Below are positions 4,687 to 21,654 of a stretch of 53,980 bases of DNA, one piece after another; the stretch's first letter is position 1, and every line of letters starts with the position of its first letter. The DNA comes from a bacterium. GTDB taxonomy: Bacteria; UBA10199; 2-02-FULL-44-16; DYJF01. Made by a program: the position numbers and the translations under genes. The notes beneath the pieces were generated by a model. That model made no database searches. It saw only the letters and a list, made by a program, of their open reading frames with translations, and had not been told where the DNA came from. The stretch lies in the NCBI GenBank assembly GCA_041739675.1, contig JBGSNL010000057.1:1-53980 (forward strand), in the 5' to 3' direction.

Positions 4687-4689
4687 CAT

Positions 4690-6213
4690 ATGCCGAGGCA
4701 ATCAAGAAAAAATAACGGGAAAACACTTATTACTCAGCAGTCAGTGAATTCGGTAATAAAGTCCATCTGCGACATCATGCGCAGGTCGAACTGCGCTGGT
4801 GCGCTGCAATATGTCCCCGAGCTTACATGGATACTTTTCCTTAGAATACTTGATGAACGTGAGATGTTGGAGGCTGAAAATGCAGAAGCTGTTGATGCTC
4901 ACTTCAAGTTTTCACTGGAGCACCCTTACCGCTGGCAGGATTGGGCAGCCCCAGATGGTAAGAAACGAAAAGACCTGTCTGATAAAGGAATGGGTTACTT
5001 CTTTGGCTTCGTAAACGAGGACTTACTGCCACATCTTAAGGAGTTGAGGGACAAACCAAACGCTACGCCACGTCAAAAAGTGATCAGCGAGATACTTGCA
5101 GGTGTGGATCGGGTGCGCATCGACACGGAACGCAATTTCTTGGACGTATTGGATAAGGTTAATGAGATAAGCGCTGACGGGATTGATCCAACCCATATCT
5201 TCTTATTGTCTCAGGTTTACGAAGGCCTTCTTCTAAAGATGGGTGAGAAAGGAAATGACGGAGGTCAGTTTTTTACGCCTCGTGAAGTGATACGAGCCAT
5301 GGTCAGAGTAATTGATCCGAAAGTAGGCGAAACGATCTATGACCCTGGTTGCGGAACTGGCGGTTTCTTAGCTCAAAGCTACGAATACATAGTTTCAAAG
5401 CTAGGTGATAAGGTAACCCCAAACCAGCTGGAGACGCTCAAACAGAGAACATTTTTTGGGAGGGAGAAGGAAAACCTCATCTATCCCATATCGCTGGCGA
5501 ATATGGTTTTGCACGGAATAGATAAGCCAAATATCTGGCATGGAAATACGCTTACGGGTGGGGAAACCTATGGCGGCCTATTTGAGGGCGCACCTGCTCT
5601 TTTTGACGTAATACTGATGAACCCACCGTTTGGCGGCAAAGAAGGCAAGGACGCACAGACCCGTTTTCCATATAAGACAGGTGCAACGCAGGTTCTGTTT
5701 CTTCAGCATGTGATCGAAAGCCTTGAACCCAAGGGAGGGCGCTGCGGAATCGTCCTCGACGAGGGAGTTCTGTTCCGCACAAATGAGACCGCATTCGTTC
5801 AGACAAAGCGACAATTACTGGATGATTGCGACCTCTGGTGTCTCGTTAGTCTTCCCGCTGGGGTGTTTACGGCGGCTGGGGCAGGAGTGAAGACAAACCT
5901 ATTGTTCTTCACGAAGGGGAAACCTACGGAGAAGATTTGGTATTATGATCTGTCGCATTTGAAAGTTAGAAAAAAATTGCCGCTAACGCTTGTCCACTTT
6001 GAAGAATTCTTCCGTTTGCTTCCTGACCGCGCTGACAGCGATCACAGCTGGACAGTCACCCGCGAGGAAATCGAAAAAAGGGGTTACGACCTCAAGGCAG
6101 TGAATCCCAACGCAAAGCAAGATGAAGATGCGCGGACACCAGAGGAACTGCTAGACCTCATTGAAGGGAAGGGGCGGGAGATAGCGGAGATAATAAAGCA
6201 GCTACGGGGCTGA
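4690..6213 (+). CDS. hsdM: Type I RM N6-adenine methyltransferase
   Basis: GQFFTPR, YDPGCGTGGFL (SAM binding), ILMNPPFGG (catalytic NPPF). Confidence 0.95.
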   Translation: MPRQSRKNNGKTLITQQSVNSVIKSICDIMRRSNCAGALQYVPELTWILFLRILDEREMLEAENAEAVDAHFKFSLEHPYRWQDWAAPDGKKRKDLSDKGMGYFFGFVNEDLLPHLKELRDKPNATPRQKVISEILAGVDRVRIDTERNFLDVLDKVNEISADGIDPTHIFLLSQVYEGLLLKMGEKGNDGGQFFTPREVIRAMVRVIDPKVGETIYDPGCGTGGFLAQSYEYIVSKLGDKVTPNQLETLKQRTFFGREKENLIYPISLANMVLHGIDKPNIWHGNTLTGGETYGGLFEGAPALFDVILMNPPFGGKEGKDAQTRFPYKTGATQVLFLQHVIESLEPKGGRCGIVLDEGVLFRTNETAFVQTKRQLLDDCDLWCLVSLPAGVFTAAGAGVKTNLLFFTKGKPTEKIWYYDLSHLKVRKKLPLTLVHFEEFFRLLPDRADSDHSWTVTREEIEKRGYDLKAVNPNAKQDEDARTPEELLDLIEGKGREIAEIIKQLRG

Positions 6214-6228
6214 GGAAATCATATTCTC

Positions 6229-6972
6229 ATGATGAATTATGACAAAATAATCTCAACCGATTTTGGGGCAGGTGATGAAATACCTAAACCAACCGATTGG
6301 CAAGAAATCAAGAAGGAATCTTTTGAGTTTTCAAGGCAACAAGAAGCACTTTATCAGGCTCTTGTAGAAAAGACTCCCGAATTAGCGAGAATGTATAAGG
6401 GTGCATTAATTGTTCTTATCAACAGAGATAATCCAGAGCATCTTTGTCACTCTGCGCATAGCATTCGGGAATTAATGGAGAAAGCACCAATACATTTCAA
6501 CTTACCCAGAATTCCCAAGGAACCACTTCCTGTCAAGGTGAACGCGCTCGAAGAAAAATGGCAGCCTCTGGAGGAACACGTTAACGATAATGGTTTATGC
6601 AACATTCCAGAGAATAATAAAACAGTCCTAGAGCGTTTTTTATCTGCATGTAAAACCTTCTTTACATGGCGAAAAACATTTCAGCCACGTAGATTAAATA
6701 AGGCCGCTGAAATGCTAAGAGGTTTCGACCCCCATGAAATTGCTTTGCCGGAACACTTGGAAAAACGAAGAATCAAACAGTGGGATAATATTAACGATTA
6801 CTTCATATACGTAGCACATCACAATAAACTCACTGATTATGATGAATTCATCAGTTGGTTAAATAAATTCGAAAACTTTTTTCTCGATCGCCTATGCCCA
6901 AGAGCATTTGAAGACCATCGCAATATAGATTCTATTATTGAGGAGGGAAATGATCAAGTCAGAGACAATTGA
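6229..6972 (+). CDS. Hypothetical protein, possibly HEPN-like nuclease
   Basis: 247-aa helical ORF 15 nt after hsdM; AHSIRELMEK and YFIYVAHH segments resemble HEPN-like folds (inference only). Confidence 0.5.
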   Translation: MMNYDKIISTDFGAGDEIPKPTDWQEIKKESFEFSRQQEALYQALVEKTPELARMYKGALIVLINRDNPEHLCHSAHSIRELMEKAPIHFNLPRIPKEPLPVKVNALEEKWQPLEEHVNDNGLCNIPENNKTVLERFLSACKTFFTWRKTFQPRRLNKAAEMLRGFDPHEIALPEHLEKRRIKQWDNINDYFIYVAHHNKLTDYDEFISWLNKFENFFLDRLCPRAFEDHRNIDSIIEEGNDQVRDN

Positions 6973-9835
6973 AAAGGCCATACAAGCCATTACGAAAAGG
7001 CGAGCTGATTATGAGTATTTTTATAATAAGCTCGATTCACCTGACTGGTTAAAACCACTTTGGAAGGAGGGCTTTTTCTGCAAACCAGAACCGATAATCG
7101 CCGAGGGTAAATATATAAGTTTTCCGCTTTGGCCAGAATCACAATATCTGGCTCGAATGGCTGCAAAAGACCCGGATACAGTATGTGAAATAATATTAAA
7201 GATTCCTAACACAGATAACGCGCGTGTTCATGATGACTTGGCAAGTGCAGCCTTAAATATGCCGCCCCAAGTATCTGCCCGTCTTGTCGATAAAGCGGCG
7301 GAATGGATTGAATCACCTTATCATCTTCTTTTACCCGATCATCTTGGTAAGCTGATTGAACATTTAGCAAAAGGTAATGAAGTCGATGCAGCTTTAGCAC
7401 TAGCGCGCTCTCTCTTGGATGTTGCGCCGCCACAAATACCAGAAAAGGAGGATGATAAAGAGGATTTGCATAAATACGAAGATGCAAAGCCGCTTTTTGA
7501 GGAATGGGCGTATGAGCATATTCTTAAGAAGAACATTCCAGCTCTTGTTAGTGCAGCAAAAATAAAGGTTTTTGAACTTCTTTGTGATCTCCTTGAAAAA
7601 AGCGTGATTGGCGGTATTTCCAAGCAGTCTAGGGAGGACAAAGAAGATTTCTCATATATTTGGAGACCTGCCATTGAGAACCATGAGCAGAACGTATCAC
7701 ATGGCTTAAAAAGTCTGTTAGTTACTGCTTTGAGAAGCGCCGCAGATTTACTCATGAAAGATGATTTAGTATCCATCAATGATATAGTGGCTTTCCTTGA
7801 GGCAAGGCCTTATTCAATTTTTAAACGACTCACACTATATATCTTACGACAGCACCCTGCAAAATCTGCCTACCTTGTGACCAAGTATGCTCTGGATTGC
7901 GCTGTATTTGACGATTACAGGTTCTTCCATGAATATTTTTTGCTGATACGTGTTGTTTTTGAATCTCTTGCCCCTAGCGATCAAAATACAATACTTGGCT
8001 GGATAAACAATGGGCCAAGTGACGTTGAAGATCATAAGCGCTCGTATAAGGAAATGTACGGGAAGGAATTGTCAGATAGCGAGGTGAAGGATTATATAAA
8101 TCACTGGATTATTAGAAGACTAGCTGTGATCAAGGAGGTATTGCCCGCTGAGACAAAAGCAAAATACGACGCTCTGGTTTCAAAGTACGGTGAGCCAAAG
8201 CATTCAGAGTTTCGAAATTATCACGAAAGCTGGGTTGGGCCAACTAGCCCAATTGGAAATAAAGAGCTTAGCGAGATGCCAGTCGATGACATTATTAACT
8301 ATCTATCAAATTGGAAACCCTCGACAGAAATGTTTGCACCGACTCCAGAGGGGCTCGGTCGCTTATTGACAGACATCGTTTCCGCAGAACCAGAAAGATT
8401 TGCAAAAGCCGCAAATAACTTTAGAGGCCTTGATCCAACGTATGTGAGGGCTTTACTTGGTGGCTTTTCCAATGCAGCAAGAAATAAGAAGGCATTTGAT
8501 TGGGGGCACGTTCTCGAATTGTGTCAGGGGATTGTATCGCAATCTATTGAAATATCAGGAAGAGATGTTGGCGAAATAGATGCCGATCCAAGCTGGGAAT
8601 GGACAAGGCAGAGAATAGCGCATCTGCTCGATGATGGTTTTCATGAATGCGAAGGGTGCATCCCTTTCCAGTACAGATCATTGGCTTGGAGTATTCTTGT
8701 CAAATTGACAAATGATCCAACCCCTACGCCTGAAGACGAAGAACGTTATGGCGGCTCAAACATGAGACCCGCCGAGCTATCCATAAATTCAACCCGTGGT
8801 GAAGCCTTACATGCTGTTATTCAGCATGCACTATGGATTCGTAGGCACAATGATAAGAAATCAAATGCTAAAGAGCTTGCAAGTCGGGGATTTGATGAAA
8901 TGCCTGAGGTTGAAGACGTTCTTAATAATCATCTCGATATATCTAAGGAATCTTCGTTAGCTGTTCGATCAGTGTATGGACAATGGTTCCCTTGGCTTGT
9001 ATTGCTTGATAAGAAATGGGCGCAGGAAAGCGCAGCAAAGATATTCCCCACAGATGATAGCCATATTGCACATCGAAATGCCGCATGGCATACATATCTA
9101 GCCTTCTGCGCACCATATACAGAAGTATATGATCTTCTAAAAGAACAATATCTGTTTGCCGCAAATAATTTAGTAAATGTGAGTGAAACAGAACGAGCCG
9201 TTCATGAAACTAATAAGCGGTTAGCAGAGCATTTGATCACATATTACTGGCGCGGCAAGCTAGAACTCGACGACTCTGAAAGTTCCTTGAGCGTCTTTTA
9301 TGAGAAGGCTTCTGATTCTTTGCGCGCCCACGTCATGGCATACATTGGGCGACCTCTTGAAAAAACAAAAGAAGCAATTGAAGACGAAGTTTTAGATCGA
9401 CTAAGATCATTATGGGAAAAGAGACTTGACATTGCATCCAAGTCAGCCAATCTCTCGTTGTTTAAATCAGAAATTGCGTCATTTGGTTGGTGGTATGTGA
9501 GCGGTAAGTTTGATTATGACTGGTCACTTGATCAGTTATCGAAAGCGCTCAAAATATCTAAATATATAGACCCAGCCTATAAGGTCATCAAAAAGCTTGC
9601 CGATAATGCAAATATAAACTCATTACAGGTCATTGATTGCATCGATATCATCATCAAGGAACAGGATGACCAGCGGATATATTACGGCTGGCAGGATGAT
9701 ACAAAGATGCTGTTATCGAAACTAATGAATAACTCGGATAGTGCTGTAGTAACGAAAGCTAAAAATCTCGCAAACTATCTCATTGCGAAAGGCTACGGCG
9801 AAATTCGTGAATTATTTTCGAATGGCACTAAATAA
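6950..9835 (+). CDS. Large alpha-helical hypothetical protein (candidate defence sensor/scaffold)
   Basis: SD GAGGAGGG before ATG 6950; overlaps the upstream ORF; ~960 aa, Trp-rich helical (WPESQYLARMA, SINSTRGEAL); no P-loop or other catalytic motif seen. Confidence 0.6.
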   Translation: MIKSETIEKAIQAITKRRADYEYFYNKLDSPDWLKPLWKEGFFCKPEPIIAEGKYISFPLWPESQYLARMAAKDPDTVCEIILKIPNTDNARVHDDLASAALNMPPQVSARLVDKAAEWIESPYHLLLPDHLGKLIEHLAKGNEVDAALALARSLLDVAPPQIPEKEDDKEDLHKYEDAKPLFEEWAYEHILKKNIPALVSAAKIKVFELLCDLLEKSVIGGISKQSREDKEDFSYIWRPAIENHEQNVSHGLKSLLVTALRSAADLLMKDDLVSINDIVAFLEARPYSIFKRLTLYILRQHPAKSAYLVTKYALDCAVFDDYRFFHEYFLLIRVVFESLAPSDQNTILGWINNGPSDVEDHKRSYKEMYGKELSDSEVKDYINHWIIRRLAVIKEVLPAETKAKYDALVSKYGEPKHSEFRNYHESWVGPTSPIGNKELSEMPVDDIINYLSNWKPSTEMFAPTPEGLGRLLTDIVSAEPERFAKAANNFRGLDPTYVRALLGGFSNAARNKKAFDWGHVLELCQGIVSQSIEISGRDVGEIDADPSWEWTRQRIAHLLDDGFHECEGCIPFQYRSLAWSILVKLTNDPTPTPEDEERYGGSNMRPAELSINSTRGEALHAVIQHALWIRRHNDKKSNAKELASRGFDEMPEVEDVLNNHLDISKESSLAVRSVYGQWFPWLVLLDKKWAQESAAKIFPTDDSHIAHRNAAWHTYLAFCAPYTEVYDLLKEQYLFAANNLVNVSETERAVHETNKRLAEHLITYYWRGKLELDDSESSLSVFYEKASDSLRAHVMAYIGRPLEKTKEAIEDEVLDRLRSLWEKRLDIASKSANLSLFKSEIASFGWWYVSGKFDYDWSLDQLSKALKISKYIDPAYKVIKKLADNANINSLQVIDCIDIIIKEQDDQRIYYGWQDDTKMLLSKLMNNSDSAVVTKAKNLANYLIAKGYGEIRELFSNGTK

Positions 9836-9858
9836 CTATTTCATGGTTAGGAGGATGT

Positions 9859-10026
9859 ATGAGCAAACATTGGCATTGGCCATTCACCTTCGTTTTAGTA
9901 ACCCTGCTCACGACTGTGAGTTCGGCGTCGGCTGTTGAGACAAAGGGCGCTGCAACAAAGGGGCCAAGTCTTGACTCTTCACATTGTATAGATAGAAGGT
10001 CAGTAACCAGGGTCAGGCTGAAATAA
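9859..10026 (+). CDS. Small ORF (55 aa) with signal-peptide-like N-terminus; possible gene remnant
   Basis: SD GGAGG then ATG; MSKHWHWPFTFVLVTLLTTVSSASA-VETK...; below the ORF-track cutoff. Confidence 0.3.
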   Translation: MSKHWHWPFTFVLVTLLTTVSSASAVETKGAATKGPSLDSSHCIDRRSVTRVRLK

Positions 10027-10042
10027 TTTACTATTTTTGATC

Positions 10043-10077
10043 GCTGCCCGTCGCTTTGCGCAAGGGGGCGCCGCAGC
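10043..10077. repeat. GC-rich imperfect hairpin repeat, copy 1 of 3
   Basis: GCTGCCCGTCGCTTTGCGCAAGGGGGCGCCGCAGC; similar sequence at 11490-11523 and 13410-13437. Confidence 0.75.
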
Positions 10078-10226
10078 AAAACAGGAAATCGATAAATGCG
10101 ATAAAAGCGATTATGATTACGATTATGATTAACGATTATCGATAATCGATTTTGTCGCCTTTATCTTAATCATAATCCTAATCGCCGTTATCATTAATCA
10201 GTTGTTTGCATCATTTTCGGTCGCCC

Positions 10227-10322
10227 TGCCCGGTTTTCATGCAGCGATAAATCTCTCCGCAATTAACAAAGCGCCAACTTTCAAGCACTTCCGCCATTTC
10301 ATATCCTGGCACAACCATTGCT
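10227..10322 (+). promoter_or_regulatory. Sigma54-type promoter module (UAS-like, IHF-like, -24/-12)
   Basis: TGGCAC-AACCA-TTGCT at 10307-10322; TTTCAA-GCAC-TTC at 10279; TGCCCGGTTTTCATGCA at 10227. Confidence 0.6.
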
Positions 10323-10430
10323 TATGTAAAAATGGTAATGAACACCCACATTCATAATCAGCATCACCTCCGCAAAATAACCCTTGATAATATACCCCTC
10401 CGGCATACAATCGTATGCTGGAGGAATACG

Positions 10431-10982
10431 ATGCTATTCACAGATAACCAACTGTCCATTTTAAGCGTTCTTATCAACGAGCCGGAGGGAGAGCTTCATT
10501 TCAGGGATCTGGCGAGACGTCTTCAGAAAGAGCCGGGAGTGATCCAAAAATCGCTCAACAACCTCGAAGTGGGCGGGTTTGTCAAAAGTCGCAGAAGAGG
10601 AAATCAGCGGCTCATAAGTTTCAACATTGATCACCCGTTGGCCGAAGAAGTGAAAAATATCGTGGAAAAAAGCGCCGGAGTGAGAGCGGCCCTGAAAAAA
10701 ATAATGGATGAGTTGGGCGAGATCAAAACGGCTCTCATATTTGGTTCCTATGCAAGGGGGAATTATACAAAGGCATCGGACATGGATCTTCTAATTGTAG
10801 GTAATCCCAATTGCGAAACCGAGCTGACAAACAAAATAGGAGATATAGAGAAGAAGATCGGACGGGAAATCAATTTCAAATTATACAGTCCCGACGAATT
10901 CAGACGCCGGATGAAGAACAAAGATCCCTTTCTTGAAGAGATCCTGGGCGATAAATGCATTCTTCTAAAAGGAAAATTATGA
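10431..10982 (+). CDS. Winged-HTH + minimal nucleotidyltransferase (MNT) antitoxin
   Basis: SD GGAGG; N-terminal HTH; IFGSYARG...SDMDLLIVG Pol-beta NTase motif. Confidence 0.88.
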   Translation: MLFTDNQLSILSVLINEPEGELHFRDLARRLQKEPGVIQKSLNNLEVGGFVKSRRRGNQRLISFNIDHPLAEEVKNIVEKSAGVRAALKKIMDELGEIKTALIFGSYARGNYTKASDMDLLIVGNPNCETELTNKIGDIEKKIGREINFKLYSPDEFRRRMKNKDPFLEEILGDKCILLKGKL

Positions 10983-11443
10983 AAGGCATATTTGACGCTC
11001 ATATGAATGGTGGATTTTTAAAGAAGCAACATCCAAATGAACGTCAAATATCGTATCAACTTCATCGTGCCGATCTTGATCTCAAAACTGCTCAAAAAAT
11101 AATCAACGCGGACCCGGAATGGGCGATAACTGTTGCATATCATGCGATGCTGCGTTCAGGCCGTGCTTTATTGTTTGCTCATGGTTATTTGCCCGCGGAC
11201 GGCGCCCAGCATAAGACGGTAGTCGAATTAACGGGCAAGATATTCGGAAGCAGCTATAAGGATCTCATAACGCAATTTGAGCGCTTGCGCAGGAAGAGAA
11301 ATATGTTTTTCTATGAATCATTCGAATCGGCATCTGCTACAGAGGCGCGAAACGCACTGAAGACAGCTGCAACAATTTTGGCAGAAGTTAGGAAAGCTGT
11401 TGAAATAATCTCGAAACAGCAGCATCTTGACTTCCAGAAATAG
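10979..11443 (+). CDS. HEPN domain protein (MNT-HEPN toxin partner)
   Basis: AYHAMLRSGRALL and RRKRNMFFYE HEPN-type motifs; ATGA overlap with the MNT gene. Confidence 0.85.
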   Translation: MKGIFDAHMNGGFLKKQHPNERQISYQLHRADLDLKTAQKIINADPEWAITVAYHAMLRSGRALLFAHGYLPADGAQHKTVVELTGKIFGSSYKDLITQFERLRRKRNMFFYESFESASATEARNALKTAATILAEVRKAVEIISKQQHLDFQK

Positions 11444-11489
11444 CGACAAATAGAGGATTCCTTCCCCTCTTGTAACTCGTTGAAGCGAT

Positions 11490-11523
11490 TGCCCGTCGGT
11501 TTGCGAGAAAGGGGCGCCGCGGC
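11490..11523. repeat. GC-rich imperfect hairpin repeat, copy 2 of 3
   Basis: TGCCCGTCGGTTTGCGAGAAAGGGGCGCCGCGGC. Confidence 0.7.
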
Positions 11524-11545
11524 GCGGGAACGATAATCGCTTATA

Positions 11546-11972
11546 TGGAGGGCATGCATATGCAATATTCAATCGCATTAGACCTTCAGCAGAGAATGTG
11601 TGAGATTGTGCGCAGGCTCGATTTTACACATATAGATTGCAATCGAGTTGTTTGTCTCAGAAGCATCGGGAGCAAAACCAAAAGAGTCATTGCCAGATGC
11701 CATGCTTTGCCCAAGATTATGCAGTTAGCAATGGAGGCGAAGGCTCATTATGCGATCGAGTTTCTGGAACGCTTTGAGAAACTCACAACGGCCGATCAGG
11801 ATATGACGATCATCCATGAATTGATGCATATTCCAAAAACCTTCGGCGGCGGTTTCAGGCATCACGATTTTGTTTGTCGTAAAAATGTGGAGAAGTTGTA
11901 CAAAATGTATTTGCAGTCCCAAGGATGAAGGGGGCGGGCGCTTTTATCATTGATCGTTTTGCATAAGTAAAA
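11546..11972 (+). repeat. ~430-bp direct repeat, copy 1 (copy 2 at 14361-14787)
   Basis: Near-identical DNA covering the SD, the whole metallopeptidase gene and ~45 nt of downstream sequence ending GCATAAGTAAAA. Confidence 0.92.
11560..11928 (+). CDS. Putative zinc metallopeptidase (COG4900 / phage-metallopeptidase-like), copy 1
   Basis: IIHELMHIP HExxH motif, GGFRHH, RSIGSK..VIAR pattern; SD GGAGGG. Confidence 0.8.
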   Translation: MQYSIALDLQQRMCEIVRRLDFTHIDCNRVVCLRSIGSKTKRVIARCHALPKIMQLAMEAKAHYAIEFLERFEKLTTADQDMTIIHELMHIPKTFGGGFRHHDFVCRKNVEKLYKMYLQSQG

Positions 11973-12016
11973 ACCACTGGTAACGGAGCAAAGGTTTAAA
12001 AACCGTTTAATTTGAT

Positions 12017-12583
12017 CTATTTAGCCTTAGTCAACATCCCATTAACAATGGCTCGATATTCGGTCTGACGATGCAAGGGGTCAGTTGAGAACGCCAGATA
12101 AGTAGGGGCTGGCGTTAGCAGATCGTCATCTTTTCCATGAGCATAATAATTGTATGAAGACCATATACTGTCCTTTGGAGTTTTGTCCCTTCCGGCACGC
12201 ACGCCATTCAGGTCGACATAGGCCATAACTGCAAGCAGATGAGTATCACCTTCGATCGGCAGCGACTTGATCCTTTCCATAACCACCTGACCACGCCTGC
12301 GCATCCTACGATTTGTCTGCCGTGCAAATAAGTTGTTAACGACTCTGAAGAAATTCGAGAAAGATTCTATTGATTCGGTTTTTCCTATCAAGTGAATGTG
12401 ATTTTCCATGAAGTGGTAGCCGTAAAAGACCATTTCATATTTATCGCGGTATTTAAGCAGCAGGTCATAGTAGAGCCGCTTGATGCGATCGTCTCGAAGC
12501 AGCCAACTCTTGTTGTGACATCGCCATGCTACGTGAAATAAGCAGCCATCATATAGTATCTGGTTGCGTGGTCGGCCGGGCAT
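12017..12583 (-). CDS. REP-associated tyrosine transposase (Y1_Tnp, HUH superfamily)
   Basis: MPGRPR start, FHVAWRCHN, MENHIHL (HUH), YVDLNGVRAG (catalytic Tyr), WSSY. Confidence 0.88.
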   Translation of the reverse strand: MPGRPRNQILYDGCLFHVAWRCHNKSWLLRDDRIKRLYYDLLLKYRDKYEMVFYGYHFMENHIHLIGKTESIESFSNFFRVVNNLFARQTNRRMRRRGQVVMERIKSLPIEGDTHLLAVMAYVDLNGVRAGRDKTPKDSIWSSYNYYAHGKDDDLLTPAPTYLAFSTDPLHRQTEYRAIVNGMLTKAK

Positions 12584-12598
12584 ATCCTTCTTGAACCT

Positions 12599-12614
12599 AG
12601 CAAGGAATATGCCA
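12599..12614 (-). promoter_or_regulatory. Sigma54 -24/-12 promoter of the transposase
   Basis: Minus strand TGGCAT-ATTCC-TTGCT, 15 nt upstream of the ATG. Confidence 0.6.
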
Positions 12615-12809
12615 TGAGAGGCTCGTACTGTAACAACTTGAAATGATTATAAAATCATCGCTGAAGAGTTGTTGCCAGGCAGCGCTAAGTGCTGTATTTT
12701 CATGCACATTGTAGCATTTTGCTCCGTTACCAGTGGCGCATTGAAAAGTGGTATAATTAAAACAAAGGAAAAAGGTTTCCGGGAATATTGTGGGAAGGAG
12801 ATGCGTTAC

Positions 12810-13211
12810 ATGAACATTCTGATCAAAATTGCGTTGGTGTTCGCGTTAGGCATGGCAGTTTCGGCAGCTGGCATTGCCAATGCGCAGAGTTGGAGGAATT
12901 ACGGAACTCGGAGCGGCCAATATACAGGCCCTGGTGGGGGTTTGTCCACGGGACCAGGCGGTGGTCAATCCACGGGACCTGGTGGCGGCTTGTCTACTGG
13001 ACCGGGTGGTGGTCAATCCACGGGACCTGGTGGCGGTTTGTCCACTGGGCCGGGTGGTGGCCTATCCACAGGACCTGGCGGTGGTTTGTCCACTGGGCCA
13101 GGTGGTGGTCAGTCCACGGGACCTGGCGGGGGTTTGTCCACTGGGCCAGGTGGTGGCCTGTCAACGGGTCCTTGCGGTGGGTTGTCAACGGGGCCATGTT
13201 ATTCTAAATAG
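12810..13211 (+). CDS. Secreted glycine-rich octapeptide-repeat protein (TGPGGG[L/Q]S)n
   Basis: SD AAGGAG; signal peptide ending ANA-Q; 11 full repeats with synonymous third-position variation, which favours this frame. Confidence 0.75.
   Translation: MNILIKIALVFALGMAVSAAGIANAQSWRNYGTRSGQYTGPGGGLSTGPGGGQSTGPGGGLSTGPGGGQSTGPGGGLSTGPGGGLSTGPGGGLSTGPGGGQSTGPGGGLSTGPGGGLSTGPCGGLSTGPCYSK
12924..13199 (+). repeat. 24-bp coding tandem repeat, 11.5 units
   Basis: ACNGGNCCNGGYGGNGGY(YTR/CAR)TCN units read directly. Confidence 0.9.
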
Positions 13212-13381
13212 GTTATCAGTGATTTGATTTCTTCCGTCTTCTTTTGATAAATGGTCAATTGGTGAATTCACAAGTCAAGTACAACGCTCGGCCCTGTAGG
13301 CCGCCCGAGGCGTTTTAAAACCAAAACATTTCAATCGATCCCAATTGACAAGTGAACGGCATCGGGGCGGCGCATGCTGAG

Positions 13382-13411
13382 GACCATTTTGTTGACGTCA
13401 ACAAAATGATC
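13382..13411. repeat. 30-bp palindrome with a perfect 24-bp core
   Basis: CATTTTGTTGAC|GTCAACAAAATG at 13385-13408. Confidence 0.85.
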
Positions 13412-13437
13412 GCTTTGCGCGAAGGGGGCGCCGCGGC
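13410..13437. repeat. GC-rich hairpin repeat, copy 3 of 3 (5'-truncated)
   Basis: TCGCTTTGCGCGAAGGGGGCGCCGCGGC. Confidence 0.7.
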
Positions 13438-13460
13438 CACTACTTCATTTCCGGTCACCC

Positions 13461-13556
13461 TGCATGATTTTCATGCAGCAATCATCATTTCTAAGAATCT
13501 AATTTCCTTTAAAATCAATCCATTATCACCACCTCGTTCCCGGTACAGATCTTGCT
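13461..13556 (+). promoter_or_regulatory. Second, partly degenerate copy of the sigma54-type promoter module
   Basis: Palindrome TGCATGA-TTT-TCATGCA (13461-13477), IHF consensus AATCAA-TCCA-TTA (13513-13525), CGGTAC-AGATC-TTGCT (13541-13556); same spacing as 10227-10322. Confidence 0.5.
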
Positions 13557-13605
13557 AATTACAGCAAATACAATGAGTTCCTTTTCAACAATGGTAAAAA
13601 ATCCC

Positions 13606-13651
13606 GATTCCCATTTATGGTAATATTCCCTTGATTCCCATATTTGGTAAT
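13606..13651. promoter_or_regulatory. Tandem 19-bp pseudo-palindromic operators upstream of the relE-higA pair
   Basis: GATTCCCATTTATGGTAAT (13606-13624) and GATTCCCATATTTGGTAAT (13633-13651). Confidence 0.55.
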
Positions 13652-13660
13652 GGTAAGATT

Positions 13661-13957
13661 ATGACTAGAGAGGAAACACAAAAACGCTGGCGGCTCTTAG
13701 AAAGCACTTCTGCGCAGAAGGTCATTTTGAGGGCGCCTCTTCAAGTGCGCCAGAAGTATGAGTTTTGGAAGGAGCAGATAGAAGACGGCGGGCCCATGGG
13801 AATTCGGAAATGGAAGGGATTTTATGATCATCTGCTCAAGGGGGAGTGGGAAGGCTACAGATCATCATATTTGAATAAGCAATACAGGGTCATCTATAGA
13901 ATAGAAGCGGAGTGTAGAACGGTATTTGTCGAGAGAATCGGTCCTCACAATTATTGA
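13661..13957 (+). CDS. RelE/HigB-family mRNA interferase toxin
   Basis: DHLLKGEWEGYRSSYLNKQYRVIYRI...IGPHNY RelE-superfamily pattern; precedes an HTH gene. Confidence 0.85.
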   Translation: MTREETQKRWRLLESTSAQKVILRAPLQVRQKYEFWKEQIEDGGPMGIRKWKGFYDHLLKGEWEGYRSSYLNKQYRVIYRIEAECRTVFVERIGPHNY

Positions 13958-13970
13958 TCACGAGGTTTGT

Positions 13971-14354
13971 GTGAAAAAAGAAAAATATAGTGAATCGAAG
14001 AAATATGCTGATCTGACGCCGGGGGATCGCATTAAGATCGCCTGCGAATTATCCGGCCTAACACAATTGGAGATAGCGCATCGCGCAGGACTTCGCCCTC
14101 CTCATCTGAACGAGATGATTCATGGTAAGAGGCCGATTGGGCTTGATGTCGCACAGCGCTTATCGAAAGTGCTCGGCCTTTCAGTGATCCGTCTCCTTGA
14201 TATAGCGGATGAAGCGAGTAGAAAAGAAGTCGAAGCGGCGCTGATGAAGCTCAAGAAACACGTCGAAGAATCGGAAACGATAGGAGAGATCACCGAAAAG
14301 ATTCTTTTGAAGGATATCGATGAAGCTATCGAAGCTAACCGCAAGGCAAGTTGA
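13971..14354 (+). CDS. XRE/HigA-like HTH antitoxin
   Basis: TPGDRIK...GLTQLEIAHRAGL...LNEMIHGKRPIG...LSKVL; GTG start after GAGGT. Confidence 0.85.
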   Translation: MKKEKYSESKKYADLTPGDRIKIACELSGLTQLEIAHRAGLRPPHLNEMIHGKRPIGLDVAQRLSKVLGLSVIRLLDIADEASRKEVEAALMKLKKHVEESETIGEITEKILLKDIDEAIEANRKAS

Positions 14355-14360
14355 GCGGCA

Positions 14361-14787
14361 TTGAGGGTGTGCATATGCAATATTCGATCGCGTTGGATCT
14401 TCAGCAGAGAATGTGTGAGATTGTGCGCAGGCTCGAGTTTGCCCATATAGACTGCAATCGGGTTGTTTGTCTCAGAAGCATAGGGAGCAAAACCAAAAGA
14501 GTCATTGCCAGATGCCATGCATTGCCCAAGGTTATGCAGTTGGCAATGGAGGCGAAGGCCCATTATGCAATCGAATTTCTTGAGCGCTTTGAGAAACTAA
14601 CAACTGCCGATCAGGATATGACGATCATCCATGAATTGATGCATATTCCAAAAACCTTCGGCGGAGGTTTCAGGCATCACGATTTTGTTTGTCATAAAAA
14701 TGTGGAGCAGTTGTACAAAAGATATTTGCAATCCCAAGTATGAAGGGGGCGGGCGCTTTTATCGTTGATCGTTTTGCATAAGTAAAA
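14361..14787 (+). repeat. ~430-bp direct repeat, copy 2
   Basis: Matches 11546-11972 at an offset of 2815 bp. Confidence 0.92.
14375..14743 (+). CDS. Putative zinc metallopeptidase, copy 2
   Basis: HELMH motif; 7 amino-acid differences from copy 1 over 122 aa. Confidence 0.8.
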   Translation: MQYSIALDLQQRMCEIVRRLEFAHIDCNRVVCLRSIGSKTKRVIARCHALPKVMQLAMEAKAHYAIEFLERFEKLTTADQDMTIIHELMHIPKTFGGGFRHHDFVCHKNVEQLYKRYLQSQV

Positions 14788-14824
14788 TATAGGGCCTATA
14801 GAACTCAAAAAAAAGGAGGTGGAG

Positions 14825-15256
14825 ATGAAGAAGATATTGTTTGTCCTTATTGCCGCAGTGCTGGCAGTGCCGGCCGTCGCAATGGCCGAGAAATGCGCGG
14901 AGCCCGCAAAGGCCGATCTGAAGGCCGGCACAAAGGTTGTGGCCCAATGGCAGGGCGACAGCTGGTGGCTGGCAAAAATCGATTCGGTCAACAAAGGCCG
15001 CTACAACGTGACCTACTCCGACCAGACGAAGGGGAGGAACAAGACTAAGGATCAGGTAGCCTATTATATCTATGCCGACTCGCAAACGCCGCCCCCTTGC
15101 TTCAAGACGGGCGACAAGGTGATCGCGCAGTGGAAGGGCGACAACTGGTGGAAGGCCGAGATTACGTCCATCAAGGGCGATAAGGCCGATATCACATACT
15201 CCGACGGAGAAAAGGGAACGCGCAAGCTGACCGATATGGTCCGCAATCCGTGGTGA
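14825..15256 (+). CDS. Secreted protein with two tandem Tudor/Agenet-like (SH3-fold) repeats
   Basis: Signal peptide (AMA-E); two units of GxKVxAQWxGDxWWxAxIxSxxxxxxxxTYSD. Confidence 0.7.
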   Translation: MKKILFVLIAAVLAVPAVAMAEKCAEPAKADLKAGTKVVAQWQGDSWWLAKIDSVNKGRYNVTYSDQTKGRNKTKDQVAYYIYADSQTPPPCFKTGDKVIAQWKGDNWWKAEITSIKGDKADITYSDGEKGTRKLTDMVRNPW

Positions 15257-15280
15257 CAGCGATTCATCTCGTGAAGAATC

Positions 15281-15311
15281 AAAAAGCCCCGCGCGAAGCG
15301 GGGCTTTTTTT
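15281..15311. terminator. Intrinsic terminator (bidirectional form)
   Basis: AAAAA-GCCCCGC-loop-GCGGGGC-TTTTTTT. Confidence 0.85.
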
Positions 15312-15365
15312 GAACGGTCAGGTTTTTTTATGGCAGCGCTCACGATTTTATGTTGAAATGCGTTC

Positions 15366-16670
15366 ATGCCTGATTTAAATCCAAAACGCGGGCAGATAGG
15401 CCTTTTCGCCGCAATATCGATAGGCATAGGCGGCATGGTGGGCGCCGGCATATTCTCGATATTGGGCGTCGTGGCCGAGGTTTCGGGAACAGCCATGTGG
15501 TTGTCGTTTGTCATCGGCGGCATCGTGGCGCTTTTTTCCGCTTACTCTTATGCAAAACTGGGAGCGCGTTTTCCTTCAGCAGGAGGGGCGGTCGAATTTC
15601 TCGTGCAGGGTTTCGGCGACGGGGTCTTGAGCGGCGGCATCAATATATATATGTGGATCGGATACATCATAGCCCTTGCGCTGTATGCGCACGGATTCGC
15701 CGGATATTTCGCAACATTTTTTCCGCAATACACGTCGCCCCTCTTTGGAAAGGCGGCGGCGGCGGGGATCGTCATTTTGTTTACGGCGATAAACTTCATC
15801 GGGGCCGGAATGGTGGGGCGCTCCGAAACTTTCATCGTGGCCGTAAAGCTCGTTATCCTTCTGCTTTTTTCGGTCGTCGGTATGTTTTTCATTCATCCGG
15901 CATATCTTTCTCCGTCAGACTGGCCTCATTTATCGGGAATAATGTTTGGCGCTGGAGTTTTGTTCATCGGCTATGAGGGGTTCGGCCTCATCACGAACGC
16001 GGCGGAAGACATGGCCGATCCTAAAAAACTTCTGCCGCGCGCGCTTTACATGAGCGTCTTCGGCGTCATCATCATTTATATCCTGGTTTCCGTGGCGGTG
16101 CTTGGAAACCTGCACATCAATGAGATCGTCGGCGCGAAGGACTACGCTTTGGCCCAGGCGGCAAAGCCGTTTCTGGGGATGCTGGGTTTCAAGTTCATCG
16201 CCATTGGGGCGCTTTTCTCCACGGCGTCGGCAATCAACGCCACACTTTTCGGTTCGGCAAACGTCAGCTATATGCTCGCAAAAGACGGGGAGCTGCCGGC
16301 GGTTTTTTCACGGAGGATATGGCAGGGGGGATCGGGCGGTCTTGTGATCACGGCAATAATGGTTTTGGTTTTTGTTGTCTTTTTCGATCTGTCGGGCGTG
16401 GCCATGATGGGCAGCGGTTCGTTTCTTATGATATATGCGGCAGTCGGAATTGCCCATCTGCGCGTTCTTTCGCAAACCGGCGCGAACAAAACGCTTGTCT
16501 ATCTGTCGGTTATCGCCTGCCTTGGCACGGCCGCGGTTTTGGGCTACTATATTTATCAAAATTCCAAGCCGGCATTCGTTACGATGTTTGCGCTCATACC
16601 GTTGTGCTTCGGTCTGGAATGGGCGTATCGGGCCACTTGCGGAAGGACGATTGTGCTTCGGTCAAAATGA
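15366..16670 (+). CDS. APC-family amino acid permease
   Basis: IGIGGMVGAGIF, YAKLGARFPSAGG, FIGYEGFGLITNAAEDMADP; many hydrophobic helices. Confidence 0.9.
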   Translation: MPDLNPKRGQIGLFAAISIGIGGMVGAGIFSILGVVAEVSGTAMWLSFVIGGIVALFSAYSYAKLGARFPSAGGAVEFLVQGFGDGVLSGGINIYMWIGYIIALALYAHGFAGYFATFFPQYTSPLFGKAAAAGIVILFTAINFIGAGMVGRSETFIVAVKLVILLLFSVVGMFFIHPAYLSPSDWPHLSGIMFGAGVLFIGYEGFGLITNAAEDMADPKKLLPRALYMSVFGVIIIYILVSVAVLGNLHINEIVGAKDYALAQAAKPFLGMLGFKFIAIGALFSTASAINATLFGSANVSYMLAKDGELPAVFSRRIWQGGSGGLVITAIMVLVFVVFFDLSGVAMMGSGSFLMIYAAVGIAHLRVLSQTGANKTLVYLSVIACLGTAAVLGYYIYQNSKPAFVTMFALIPLCFGLEWAYRATCGRTIVLRSK

Positions 16671-16753
16671 CAATGAAAAGACATCATAAAATAATGTTGG
16701 CCGTGGGGTTTCTGCTGGCGATGATCGCCATGGCGGTCCTCATGATCTGGCAA

Positions 16754-18454
16754 TCATAAGCCCCTTTTCATCTTTTTGTATTTGATGCGGTGGACGTCGC
16801 GGGCCGCGTCGCCAAGGCGGCGGATGCGGTCGGCCTCGTAGTCGGCAAAGTTGCCCTCGAACCAGACGACACGCGAATCTCCTTCAAATGCCAGGATATG
16901 TGTGGCCACGCGGTCCAGAAACCAGCGGTCATGGCTGATGATGACGGCACATCCCGCAAAATTTTCCAGCGCAACCTCAAGGGCGCGAAGCGTGTTCACG
17001 TCAAGATCGTTGGTCGGCTCGTCCAAAAGGAGAACGTTGCCCGCATCCTTTAGGGTCATGGCAAGATGGACGCGGTTCCTTTCGCCGCCGGATAGAATTT
17101 TGATCTGTTTTTGCTGGTCCGTTCCCGAGAAGTTGAATCTTGCAACGTAAGCGCGGGAATTCACCTCGCGGCTGCCCAGAGTTATCATATCCGAACCGTC
17201 CGATATGCATTCCCAAACGGTGCGCTCGTCGTCAGGGGCAAAGCGGTCCTGGCGGACATAGCCGAGCTTCACAGTATCCCCCATTTTGAACGTGCCGCTG
17301 TCCGGCTTTTCCAGCTCCATGATAATTTTGAAGAGGGTCGTTTTGCCCGCGCCGTTGGGGCCGATGACGCCGACAATTCCGCCCTGCGGCAGCGAGAAGT
17401 TCATCTCTTCAAAAAGAAGATTGTCGCCGTAGGCCTTTGAAACATTTTTAGCCTCTATGACGGATGCGCCCAGACGCGGACCCGGCGGAATATAAATTTC
17501 AACATCCTCTTCAAGTCTGTCGCGGTCCTGCTTCAAGAGATTTTCGTAATTCGTGATGCGGGCCTTGCTCTTGGCGCGGCGGGCGGAAGGGGACTGGCGG
17601 ATCCATTCCAGTTCGCGGTCGACGGTTCTCAGGCGCTTCTTGTCGGAGCGCTCTTCCAGCGCCAGACGCTGCTCTTTTTGCTCCAGCCACGACGAATAGT
17701 TTCCCTTCCACGGGATTCCGTAGCCGCGGTCGAGCTCCAATATCCAACCCGCAACGTTGTCCAGAAAATAGCGGTCGTGGGTAACCGCGATGACGGTTCC
17801 TTTATATTCCTGCAGATGGCGTTCCAGCCACCAGACAGATTCAGCGTCCAGATGGTTGGTCGGTTCGTCGAGAAGCAGGATGTCAGGCTCTTTCAAAAGC
17901 AAGCGGCACAATGCGACTCGGCGTTTTTCGCCGCCGGAGAGGATCTCTATCAACTGATCGTCCGACGGACAGCGCAGGGCGTCCATTGCCAGTGACAGAC
18001 GGTTGTCCAGGTTCCACGCGTCCGCATGGTCGAGCTTCTCCTGCACCTTGGCCTGCCGCTCGAGGAGTTTTGTCATTTCATCGTCCGACATAGGGTTTGC
18101 GAACGCATTGTTGATCGCTTCGAATTCCTTCAGAAGGTCGACGACTTCCTGCACGCCCTCTGAAACCGTTTCCTTGACCGTTTTCTTCGGATCCAGCACC
18201 GGTTCCTGCTCCAAAAAACCGACGCTGTAATCTTTTGAGAAATGGACCTCACCGTTGTAGCCGTCGTCGACGCCGGCGATAATCTTCAAAAGCGAGCTTT
18301 TGCCGGAGCCGTTCAGCCCCAGGACGCCTATCTTTGCGCCGTAGTAGAAGCCCAGAGAAATATCCTTGAGGACCTGCTTTTTGGGCGGATGCACTCTGCT
18401 CACCTGATGCATCGAAAAGATTACTTTGCGCGATTCATTTTCCTGGTTTGCCAT
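16754..18454 (-). CDS. ettA: Energy-dependent translational throttle protein EttA (ABC-F)
   Basis: PPKKQVLKDISLGFYYGAKIGVLGLNGSGKS; two ABC domains; GIPWKGNYSSWLEQK; IYIPPGPRLG; HRIKYKK end. Confidence 0.93.
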   Translation of the reverse strand: MANQENESRKVIFSMHQVSRVHPPKKQVLKDISLGFYYGAKIGVLGLNGSGKSSLLKIIAGVDDGYNGEVHFSKDYSVGFLEQEPVLDPKKTVKETVSEGVQEVVDLLKEFEAINNAFANPMSDDEMTKLLERQAKVQEKLDHADAWNLDNRLSLAMDALRCPSDDQLIEILSGGEKRRVALCRLLLKEPDILLLDEPTNHLDAESVWWLERHLQEYKGTVIAVTHDRYFLDNVAGWILELDRGYGIPWKGNYSSWLEQKEQRLALEERSDKKRLRTVDRELEWIRQSPSARRAKSKARITNYENLLKQDRDRLEEDVEIYIPPGPRLGASVIEAKNVSKAYGDNLLFEEMNFSLPQGGIVGVIGPNGAGKTTLFKIIMELEKPDSGTFKMGDTVKLGYVRQDRFAPDDERTVWECISDGSDMITLGSREVNSRAYVARFNFSGTDQQKQIKILSGGERNRVHLAMTLKDAGNVLLLDEPTNDLDVNTLRALEVALENFAGCAVIISHDRWFLDRVATHILAFEGDSRVVWFEGNFADYEADRIRRLGDAARDVHRIKYKKMKRGL

Positions 18455-18472
18455 GGCGATTATTTCCTTTTT

Positions 18473-20305
18473 TCATGGATGAATTTTTTCAAGTTCGGCC
18501 CAGCGTTTGTAAAGACGGTCAATCTCGGATTCAAGCCCCGCAATTTCGGGCATCAGTTCTGCAAGACGGACGGCGTTGCTGACAATTTCGGGAAGCTCGC
18601 TTTCGGCCCGAAGCGTTTTAAGTTTCGCTTCGGCCTCGTGAATTTTCTCTTCCATGTGATCGAATTCGTACTGTTCCTTGAAACTCCACTTGCGTTTTGC
18701 GGCCTGCGGCGGAGTCGGAGCGGTTTTTTTGCGCGCACCGCTTGCCTGTGCGCGTTTTGCGGCCTGCTCGCCGGCGTATGCGCCCTCCCATTGTGAAAGG
18801 CTCGCAAATGAAACGATTCTGCCGGCGTTCGGGCCGTCCGGTTCGCCGAAGGCCAAGAGCCTATTGGCCACCTGATCCAGAAAATAGCGGTCGTGTGTCA
18901 CAAGGATCACTGCGCCGGGAAATTCCATCAGACACTGTTCCAGAACCTCAAGGGTCGCCATATCAAGATCGTTTGTCGGCTCGTCCAAAATCAAGACGTT
19001 GGCCTCCTTGAGCATCAGCCTTGCGATGAGGAGCCGGCTCTGCTCGCCGCCGGAGAGTCTTCCCACTTCCATGTTCATCTGTAGCTGGCTGAAATTGAAA
19101 CGGTCAAGATAGCTGCGCAGATGGATGTAGTTGCCGCGATATTTCACGTGATCGCCCGCGGGAGAGATCGTCTGCGCAACTGTTTCAGCGGGATCAAGCG
19201 TCTCGCGGTTTTGTTCAAAATAGACCACCTGAAGTTGATCGGAACGGTTCACGTGGCCGGCGTCTGGTTTTTCCTGCCCGACCAGAACTCTTATCAGCGT
19301 CGTCTTGCCGCAACCGTTCGCGCCAAGAAGCCCAAGGCGGAGGCCCGGCGTTATCAACAGATCGATATTTTTGAAGAGGAAACGGCCGTCGTAGGATTTG
19401 GCGATCCCTTTCGCCTCGATCAATTTTTTGGGATTGCGTTCGCTGGAGTGAAAATCGATCTGCGCGCTCCACACAGTGTTGCGATATTCGAGCTCCTCCA
19501 CCTCCTGCTTCAACTCCCCCGCCTGCTTTATGCGCGCATATTGCTTGGTGCTACGGGCGCGGGCGCCCTGCCGCAGCCATTCGGTCTCGCGCCTGAGCGT
19601 GTTTTTCAGCGCGAGTTCACGGCTCTCCTGGCCCGCCATCAGCTGCTCCTTGGTTTCAAGATAATCCGCATAGTCGCCCTTGATGCTCAAGAGCCCGCCC
19701 TCATTTCTGCGGTCCAGCTCCATGATGCGGTTGGAAACACGCTGCAGAAAGAGGCGGTCGTGTGTGACGGTCACCGTGGCAAAGGGCGCGTTCGCAAGAA
19801 AATCCTCGAGCCACAAAATGCTCTCCACGTCCAGATGGTTGGTGGGTTCGTCCAAGAGAACGAGATCGTGATCGCCAACAAGCACTCTGGCGAGCGCCAC
19901 GCGCTTTTTCCAGCCTCCGGACAGTTGCGCGACAGGGCTGTCTCCGCCGACGCCGTTTCGTCCGTCAAGACAGAAGCGCGACATGTACTCATGCACGATC
20001 GAGATGTGCGCCCAGTCGTGCGCGCCCGTCACGCCCGCCATGATCGCGTTCTCAACGGTGGCATCGGGGGCAAATGCGGGGATCTGCTCCAGCATCCCCA
20101 CCTTTAAACCGCGCTGCTTTGATATCGTTCCGCCGTCGGAAGTGTCGAGGCCGGCTATGATTCGAAGCAGCGTGGATTTGCCCGCTCCGTTCGGGCCGAT
20201 GAGGCCGATCCTCTCGCCTTCCTCTATGGCAAAGCTGATGCCGTCAAACAGGGGTCTTGCGGCATATGCCTTCTTAAGTTGTGTGCAGCTCAAAATCGCG
20301 GCCAT
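18473..20305 (-). CDS. uup: ABC-F family ATPase, Uup-like
   Basis: Two ABC domains, EWLRQGARARSTKQYARI linker, C-terminal coiled coil ending LYKRWAELE. Confidence 0.82.
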   Translation of the reverse strand: MAAILSCTQLKKAYAARPLFDGISFAIEEGERIGLIGPNGAGKSTLLRIIAGLDTSDGGTISKQRGLKVGMLEQIPAFAPDATVENAIMAGVTGAHDWAHISIVHEYMSRFCLDGRNGVGGDSPVAQLSGGWKKRVALARVLVGDHDLVLLDEPTNHLDVESILWLEDFLANAPFATVTVTHDRLFLQRVSNRIMELDRRNEGGLLSIKGDYADYLETKEQLMAGQESRELALKNTLRRETEWLRQGARARSTKQYARIKQAGELKQEVEELEYRNTVWSAQIDFHSSERNPKKLIEAKGIAKSYDGRFLFKNIDLLITPGLRLGLLGANGCGKTTLIRVLVGQEKPDAGHVNRSDQLQVVYFEQNRETLDPAETVAQTISPAGDHVKYRGNYIHLRSYLDRFNFSQLQMNMEVGRLSGGEQSRLLIARLMLKEANVLILDEPTNDLDMATLEVLEQCLMEFPGAVILVTHDRYFLDQVANRLLAFGEPDGPNAGRIVSFASLSQWEGAYAGEQAAKRAQASGARKKTAPTPPQAAKRKWSFKEQYEFDHMEEKIHEAEAKLKTLRAESELPEIVSNAVRLAELMPEIAGLESEIDRLYKRWAELEKIHP

Positions 20306-20429
20306 GTTTTTTAATAACCCACCCGCGGCCTTTTTGACCAGCTAAAATTGGAGCAAGGTTAGAGATGACATTGTATCTTTTATAGGGTACGAACTGAACT
20401 CACGCATTAAACCGTCAAGAGGAGGAAAC

Positions 20430-21245: not shown

Positions 21246-21336
21246 CGGGAAGAAAATATGAGATTGCAGATTTTCGTTGATAGATGACGAATAATCATTC
21301 ATCATATGGCGTCTTTACAAACATAAGGAGGGACAT

Positions 21337-21594
21337 ATGGCAGGAAAACCCAATTCGGCATTTATGAAACCGGTAACACCGGACTCGGTTCTGGCGGAAG
21401 TCGTGGGCAGCGAACCCATTCCGCGCACGGAAATCACAAAGAAGCTCTGGGTCTATATCAAGAAGAACGGTCTGCAGGATGCAAAAAACAAAAGGAACAT
21501 CAATGCGGACGCGAAGCTTCTGGCTGTCTTTGACGGCAAGAAAACGGTCAACATGTTTGAAATGACCAAGCTTGTCGCAAAGCACGTGAAGTAA
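21337..21594 (+). CDS. SWIB/MDM2 domain protein
   Basis: LAEVVG...RTEITKKLWVYIKKNGLQD..NKRNINAD..L...MFEMTKLVAKH. Confidence 0.92.
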   Translation: MAGKPNSAFMKPVTPDSVLAEVVGSEPIPRTEITKKLWVYIKKNGLQDAKNKRNINADAKLLAVFDGKKTVNMFEMTKLVAKHVK

Positions 21595-21627
21595 ATTCGA
21601 TATAAAGCAACATATGCCGCATAATCA

Positions 21628-21654
21628 AACGGCGCGAGTTTTACTCGCGCCGTT
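21628..21654. terminator. Hairpin between convergent genes, probable terminator
   Basis: AACGGCGCGAGT-TTT-ACTCGCGCCGTT perfect 12-bp stem. Confidence 0.7.

Follow-up and report, generated by a model that had tools for sequence, protein, structure and literature searches.

A variable patchwork of toxin-antitoxin and accessory genes around a predicted TIRtron at the end of a low-GC bacterial defence island

We analysed the region 10043..14787 of a 53,980-nt stretch of bacterial DNA (the window; GenBank assembly GCA_041739675.1, contig JBGSNL010000057.1), in which two toxin-antitoxin (TA) operons, two copies of a metallopeptidase gene and a transposase-like gene are separated by repeats, among them a GC-rich motif (the GC motif) that a first-pass annotation of this DNA had taken for a hairpin delimiting mobile cassettes. 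The region forms the variable end of a low-GC defence island: the GC content is 0.41-0.50 over positions 1-15000 of the window versus 0.52-0.60 over 15001-24000, and the upstream part of the island, the left end of which lies beyond the contig edge, holds a type I restriction-modification system, PDC-S11 and a Dsr1-like gene. Profile searches confirmed the first-pass gene calls. On the plus strand, these are a wHTH-nucleotidyltransferase (MNT) antitoxin-like gene (10431..10982; PF01909, PDC-M05A-like) and a HEPN toxin-like gene (10979..11443; PF05168, PDC-M05B-like), a first metallopeptidase copy with its tail (11545..11972, with the open reading frame (ORF) at 11560-11928; PhageMetallopep, PF18894), a RelE/YafQ-like toxin (13661-13957) with a HigA-like antitoxin (13971-14354), and a second metallopeptidase copy with its tail (14360..14787, ORF 14375-14743; PF18894). 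The minus strand carries a gene for a Y1 HUH transposase-like protein (TIRYT) of 188 amino acids (12017..12583; PF01797 Y1_Tnp, above the cut-off). Between the transposase gene and the second TA operon lies a plus-strand gene (12810..13211) for a secreted-type Gly/Thr/Pro repeat protein without a match in Pfam or NCBIfam; we note that this protein consists of about ten 8-residue repeats with two cysteines at the end and that it has two homologues in the class genome G007 (C1:722455 and 725937).

The two metallopeptidase segments (11545-11972 and 14360-14787) are 92.8% identical over 428 nt, with 18 synonymous and 7 nonsynonymous codon differences among 123 codons. The first-pass annotation had allowed that this duplication might be an artefact of assembly. 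In sequencing run X1, the read depth was 9-11 over the unique flanks and ~16 over the two shared metallopeptidase pieces; this depth is consistent with two copies, and the duplication looks real, but X1 may itself be the source of the window DNA and the depth is not independent evidence.

The GC motif is present in three copies, all on the plus strand and between modules, as originally described: copy 1 at 10043..10077 (aligned with a 1-nt gap), copy 2 at 11490..11523 and a shortened copy 3 at 13410..13437, the latter two being matched by a 28-nt pattern that had no match in 100 shuffles. Copy 3 is without the 5' GCTGCCCG part (the first 6-8 bases) and abuts a gene remnant described below, and copy 2 is followed by what looks, from the alignment, like a collapsed remnant of the long palindrome that follows copy 1. 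The proposal that copy 1 forms an imperfect hairpin was not borne out. With their flanks, the three copies had fold z-scores against shuffles of +0.54, +1.40, and -0.75 on the plus strand and +0.97, +1.59, and +1.13 on the minus strand; the bare copies under DNA parameters were equalled or bettered by 247-284 of 300 shuffles on either strand, RNA parameters agreed, and the fold tests disclosed no palindrome, core or spacer structure. We therefore reject a meaningful hairpin at the GC motif.

The motif was likewise rejected as a dispersed, genome-wide repeat, the possibility that the first-pass annotation had itself raised against its model, because the 1.9-Mb genome contains three copies, all confined to this locus. 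At three mismatches, one of the 92 other genomes of the class (G007) has a match, apparently inside coding sequence and likely to be due to chance, and none of the 92 was matched by another pattern, one extended to the 5' part of the motif. There were no exact matches in GTDB contigs, JGI metagenomes or IMG/VR, collections from which the nearest kin may be missing; blastn against plasmids gave short weak matches only (best E 0.04), and the six weak matches to Rfam all fell under the gathering score, with none on the motif. Other small islands of the genome (C25, C34, and C69) contain the same kinds of repeat and not the GC motif. By eye, so short a motif could also pass for what is left of a coding sequence's 3' end or of an SDR helix. 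As a divider of the region, the motif does stand between modules, as claimed, but it is neither the sole nor the best one, since at least five other kinds of repeat are found at the junctions.

We next consider the sequences ahead of the two TA operons, which the first-pass annotation had described as a conserved scaffold with swapped cargo. The leaders at ~10211 and 13445 are indeed homologous (84% over 38 nt), and their alignment with four other copies revealed two 17-bp boxes with a -24/-12 motif 100 nt after the box start. In the first leader, the paired activator-type boxes, or enhancer, lie at 10207..10243 (matrix score 34.6) and the sigma-54 -24/-12-type site at 10307..10321; in the second, the boxes lie at 13441..13477 (score 40.5) and the site, a CGGTAC variant, at 13541..13555, all on the plus strand and each site 100 nt after its box start. 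The transposase gene has a comparable arrangement on the minus strand, with a sigma-54-type site (12600..12614) 31 nt before the gene start and paired boxes (12690..12726) that score 18.0, compared with -3.0 for the best of 10 shuffles. Both TA operons and the transposase gene are thus preceded by a predicted paired-box/sigma-54-type promoter, as are comM and the ORF6N genes. The scoring matrix was trained on six copies, all outside the window, and it found 16 distinct sites in the genome (the training six included) and none in the shuffled genome. Three of these precede ORF6N-type genes (one confirmed in Pfam); another precedes comM, a gene identified through its Mg-chelatase-like domains, and scores 34.2, although the -12 element at comM deviates. 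The genome contains rpoN, and a scan for sigma-70 promoters gave 10 sites versus 8.5 expected. The leader would mainly be a sigma-54-type regulatory module that is reused before different genes; because the same enhancer and promoter occur at many sites in the genome, the impression of a conserved scaffold with exchanged cargo is largely explained. We also observed the enhancer and sigma-54 module upstream of a helix-hairpin-helix ComEA-like gene in another class genome (L115, G001:C73).

The transposase gene lies within its own 763-bp inverted-repeat unit, the terminal inverted repeats (TIRs) of which (11974..11992 on the plus strand and 12718..12736 on the minus strand) are complementary at 19 of 19 positions and contain an ACGGAG core; the second of them is overlapped by the paired boxes of the transposase promoter. 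The catalytic motifs H-I-H and Y-V-D-L-N-G (Y-x3-N-G) are intact. No target-site duplication was found in the flanks of the repeats. Homologues of the transposase at an E value of 1e-15 or better occur in 62 of 93 class genomes, and we examined the loci of the best 30 of ~140 matches, one per genome and the window included, which leaves 29 others (L051 was excluded from counts of the ends, as it is apparently the same DNA as L054). An inward-facing ACGGAG-type core within 250 nt upstream, together with an inverted one within 600 nt downstream, was present in 26 of the 29 homologous loci, as against 3 of 29 for the reversed control orientation. A longer pattern of the end was detected in 16 of 93 genomes (4 for the reversed control), with inverted pairs ~85-150 nt long. 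One class genome, G001 (83% complete), has the end and the enhancer, and the window transposase as query found no homologue in it. The window protein also differs from most of its family in that it is without a C-terminal part of ~45 amino acids present in 26 of 29 homologues, a full-length homologue having ~235 amino acids, and no match to a C-terminal helix-turn-helix (HTH) was obtained. A strict sigma-54 motif precedes the transposase gene in 23 of the 30 loci, the window among them (0 of 30 on the reverse strand), and paired boxes scoring at least 10 occur in only 8 of 30 (0 of 300 shuffles). The GGGGWSAS motif is absent from the 19-nt repeat, with look-alikes elsewhere in the locus.

Judged by its sequence, the transposase with its ends is a TIRtron as defined by Di Nocera et al. 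The protein does not reach the cut-offs of NF047646 (NCBIfam REP_Tyr_transpos; 39.2 bits versus 80) or NF033573 (IS200 transposase; 16.5 bits versus 55), and the flanks of its gene show no fold beyond that of shuffles (z -0.11 to -0.73), although no scan was aimed at repetitive extragenic palindromic sequences (REPs) with a GT[AG]G foot. The suggestion that this enzyme recognises the GC motif was not supported: the motif has no significant fold, the nearest sequence in any of the 29 homologous loci has at least 9 mismatches of 28, and the family has another, conserved inverted end. We observed a second TIRYT gene in the genome (G000 C31:329-1300), beside a tRNA 3' fragment; it has ACGGAG-like ends of its own, paired boxes (score 23) and a sigma-54 motif, and the GC motif is absent from it.

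Several other repeats and gene remnants lie at the junctions of the locus. Upstream of copy 1 of the GC motif are two same-facing GGGGWSAS-like stubs on the plus strand (9960-9975 and 10009-10022), which are assigned to TIRtron ends by resemblance only, at 1-2 mismatches from the end motif of Di Nocera et al. 2013. Copy 1 is followed by a long imperfect palindrome of GATTAC-like units (10085..10200) that belongs to a dispersed family and that 3 of 200 shuffles folded as well as; a member of this family also stands directly before the enhancer at C25:57475. A copy of a second dispersed repeat family (six copies by regular expression) is at 13246..13293 on the plus strand, and its C60 copy starts with the GGGGWSAS motif. 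Further along the same strand are a promoter-like piece (13344-13362), also seen in G016, and a palindrome (13382-13411) that sequence comparison places, in G016, G004, and G018, inside a Bro-N gene or its 5' part. Because of these occurrences, we regard 13382-13411 as a remnant of such a gene, which is presumably DinD-like. Remnants of Bro-N genes recur around the same palindrome (L039, which is G018:C31 ~17000, and L038), and in G018 (L039) the Bro-N gene breaks off at a GGGGWSAS-type repeat.

We noted further features in and around the locus. Genes of the four-helix-bundle (23S rRNA IVP-type) kind, often in divergent pairs, are interspersed with TIR ends and with repeats of the GATTAC and CTGATCAC types in small islands on C25, C34, C60, C85, and C11 of G000 and at L083, and PF05635 was confirmed for one copy in G001; the link between these repeats and four-helix-bundle genes comes from observations in this genome only, and the text of PMC4679880 contains no four-helix-bundle terms. 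Within the 5' end of the HEPN gene lies a 64-nt imperfect palindrome (10988-11051). At 9859-9960, an ORF with a signal-peptide-like start and a good ribosome site reaches, after 34 codons, the first GGGGWSAS-like stub, and might be a gene truncated at a TIR edge; no homologue was found in the genome or the loci examined. At 6229-9835, a gene for 247 amino acids with a weak match to a pPIWI-associated nuclease overlaps a gene for 965 amino acids with a match to Dsr1 that starts at model position 305; the pair may be a Dsr1-like system in which the N-terminal effector has been split or replaced. Downstream, 14825-15256 and 53297-53731 encode paralogous secreted-type tandem Agenet/Tudor-like proteins on the same contig. 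A search of metagenomes with the Tudor-like protein gave one weak, irrelevant match among the matches listed. A tRNA-Ser gene was considered as a possible anchor of the island: one precedes the Tudor-like gene of G001, which has other neighbours, and the tRNA-Ser genes of the window's genome are on other contigs.

The arrangement of the locus in relatives was seen in contigs from runs X2 and X3 of one study, which are ~94-95% identical to the window in the flanking genes and which may stem from paralogous sites or from more than one species; run X4 gave scattered short pieces only. In X3, only two letters separate position 10022 from 10084, so that copy 1 of the GC motif is gone, and X2 contains a matching loose end. 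Both X2 and X3 have an 80%-identical HigA paralogue followed by 22 letters and then the motif from 10045, and two X2 contigs exit the window sequence at 10049 and 10050 into a different repeat. Elsewhere, the palindrome or first leader is joined to the second leader (10199 to 13446 and 10217 to 13452), the second leader continues to 13660 and then into other sequence followed by HigA, and the leader, transposase-type enhancer and metallopeptidase appear in another order. Further, varied DNA is joined at 13246, the outer edge of the second repeat family, and after 13408. The offsets of the relative junctions around the GC motif differ, and other repeats have junctions too. The locus is variable, with modules in other orders, as the first-pass annotation had proposed; a cassette mechanism specific to the motif is unsupported.

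We consider it probable, if by no wide measure, that the locus is a patchwork of TA and accessory genes in which the GC motif is a copied passenger and which owes its present form to duplication, homologous recombination and deletion. Duplication with homologous recombination, which the first-pass annotation had listed as its chief alternative, fits the observations better than the hairpin model does. One junction unit comprising the motif, the palindrome, the enhancer and the promoter would have been copied locally and would then have decayed to different degrees: judging from the alignment, copy 1 appears complete, the palindrome and the 5' end seem to be gone from copy 3, and copy 2 may have kept no more than a collapsed form of the palindrome. 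A gain or loss of the intervening 2.8-3.2 kb, a unit of 2815 bp for the metallopeptidase copies and of 3234 bp for the enhancers, could then proceed through the homology of the 428-bp metallopeptidase repeats and of the enhancer repeats. Some further breakpoints are likely due to the transposase, at its own ends and not at the GC motif. A number of observations weigh against this interpretation. The homology between the metallopeptidase copies stops at the outer edge of an inverted repeat, and the flank of the other inverted repeat is unrelated DNA without a target duplication, which simple homologous recombination does not explain. Several junctions in the relatives lie in or beside the GC motif, so that the motif tracks the borders of TA modules, and the motif after the HigA paralogue in X2 and X3 resembles copy 2 after the HEPN gene. 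The origin of the motif was not found in searches of the genome, the class and public collections. The evidence from relatives consists of partial contigs from one study, aligned at 80% likeness, and on the short side of the joint of 10022 to 10084 there are just 21 letters. Relative contigs, class genomes and metagenomes yielded no complete orthologous locus, and in G001 the Tudor-like gene stands behind a tRNA-Ser gene with different neighbours.

The foremost alternative, which we regard as possible at well below even chances, is regulated gene capture driven by the TIRtron, in which a sigma-54-switched HUH enzyme, made together with ComM and uptake proteins, would cut single-stranded DNA at TIRtron ends and join foreign pieces to their outer edges, the GC motif being incidental. 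The duplication of the metallopeptidase ending at the outer edge of one repeat, with unrelated DNA at the other, hints at such end-directed joining, and the varied DNA joined to the outer edge at 13246 in relatives, together with the Bro-N gene of G018 that breaks off at a GGGGWSAS-type repeat, points the same way. Likewise in its favour are the sigma-54 motif before 23 of 30 homologues, the same boxes before comM, and an end family detected in 16 of 93 genomes, its inverted pairs being ~85-150 nt long. However, the portions of the TIRtron and RAYT papers that were compared report no TIRYT activity, the window protein is without the C-terminal part that 26 of 29 homologues keep, paired boxes scoring at least 10 are found at only 8 of 30 homologous loci, the 83%-complete G001 genome has the end and enhancer with no homologue found by this query, and the repeats may merely accumulate in dispensable DNA. 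A bolder form of the same idea, to which we give slightly less credence again, would place the locus in a sigma-54-switched DNA-acquisition programme of ComM and uptake genes with a domesticated HUH transposase, the end of which doubles as an activator site; once switched on, the enzyme would cut and join incoming single-stranded DNA at TIRtron ends and stack TA and defence modules behind copies of the promoter, making the locus a regulated, non-integron capture platform.

A third explanation, which we think improbable, would have another enzyme (the C31 TIRYT, a tyrosine recombinase or an unassembled enzyme) add TA modules at the GC motif, the motif being its recombination or insertion site and restricted to this lineage. 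This would account for three copies in the same direction between modules and for relatives in which the motif follows a different HigA or is absent from one allele, but the junction offsets differ, palindrome, core and spacer structure is missing from the motif, ACGGAG-like ends and not the GC motif accompany the C31 gene, and the two tyrosine recombinases of the genome fall far under the cut-off for the integron integrase IntI. The model of the first-pass annotation, with mobile cassettes delimited by the motif as a single-strand hairpin that the resident RAYT cuts, can point to the three direct copies, to an HUH gene within the array whose catalytic motifs are intact and to the variation among relatives. 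We judge it very improbable, however, given that there is no significant hairpin, the shared leader has a regulatory explanation, and none of the 29 homologous genes has the motif nearby, the family end being different and conserved.

The locus remains useful as a compact test case: within 5 kb, two TA operons stand together with a perfect-ended TIRtron whose catalytic motifs are intact, and a sigma-54-type enhancer and promoter shared with comM is present three times. If these enzymes were co-induced with DNA uptake and joined genes at their ends, this would be a new route for the turnover of defence islands. The host role of TIRYT/RAYT-like enzymes is an open question in the portions of the literature compared. 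A narrow search of open-access text returned no paper linking such enzymes to co-induction with DNA uptake and none on a sigma54-dependent promoter with a TA operon; among the papers listed, judged by title or abstract, none described arrays built by a TIRYT or placed TIRYT/RAYT enzymes under sigma-54.

Finally, we compared the locus with known systems. Like integron cassette arrays, the locus lines up small accessory and TA genes, mostly in the same direction, with repeats between neighbours and with a variable content; it differs by several unrelated kinds of repeat and by genes that bring their own promoters. The integron reading was rejected, in agreement with the first-pass annotation: in the 94.6%-complete genome, the best score for IntI was 88 bits against a cut-off of 265, with two tyrosine recombinases far below, and no attC end pair RYYYAAC...GTTRRRY 30-140 nt apart was present on either strand of 9800-14900. 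NtrC-type enhancers consist of paired 17-bp TGCA-N9-TGCA-like boxes ~100 nt upstream of a -24/-12 site. The elements described here share the paired 17-bp boxes, their distance of ~100 nt from the -24/-12 site and an AT-rich spacer, and here they stand before TA operons, ORF6N genes, the transposase gene and comM.

For the transposase, the comparison extends to the available portions of three papers. Like TnpA-Y1 class 2 proteins (Quentin et al. 2018, 10.1101/279083), the window protein has HuH and Y motifs with a class-2-like Y-x3-N and a low copy number; those proteins go without REP hairpins, and the flanks of the window gene show no significant fold. In that account, most TIRYTs belong to subclass 2.1 and have a C-terminal HTH, whereas the window protein has Y-x3-NG in place of Y-x3-NP and is without the HTH; because of the latter, we do not file the 188-amino acid protein under subclass 2.1. 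With REPtrons and RAYT-REPIN systems (Bertels et al. 2017, PMC5581495), the unit shares a low-copy HUH gene and a cognate dispersed repeat, but the window ends do not appear to be hairpins, number six by regular expression in the genome and accompany a protein below the cut-off of the REP_Tyr_transpos model. The closest counterpart is the TIRtron (Di Nocera et al. 2013, PMC3733652), in which RAYT-like genes are flanked by TIRs and not REPs, the TIR families are moderately abundant as singles and dimers, and the GGGGWSAS motif is common in the TIRs without being universal, unrelated TIRs being allowed. Shared with it are a Y1 HUH gene flanked by TIRs unrelated to GTAG REPs and a dispersed family of single or paired TIRs; set apart from that description are the ACGGAG core of the window end, in place of GGGGWSAS, and the position of the end, which overlaps an activator-type box upstream of a sigma-54-type promoter, an arrangement that goes unmentioned in the portion compared. 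Overall, we conclude that TIRtrons are already known in print and that the locus adds an example rather than a discovery.

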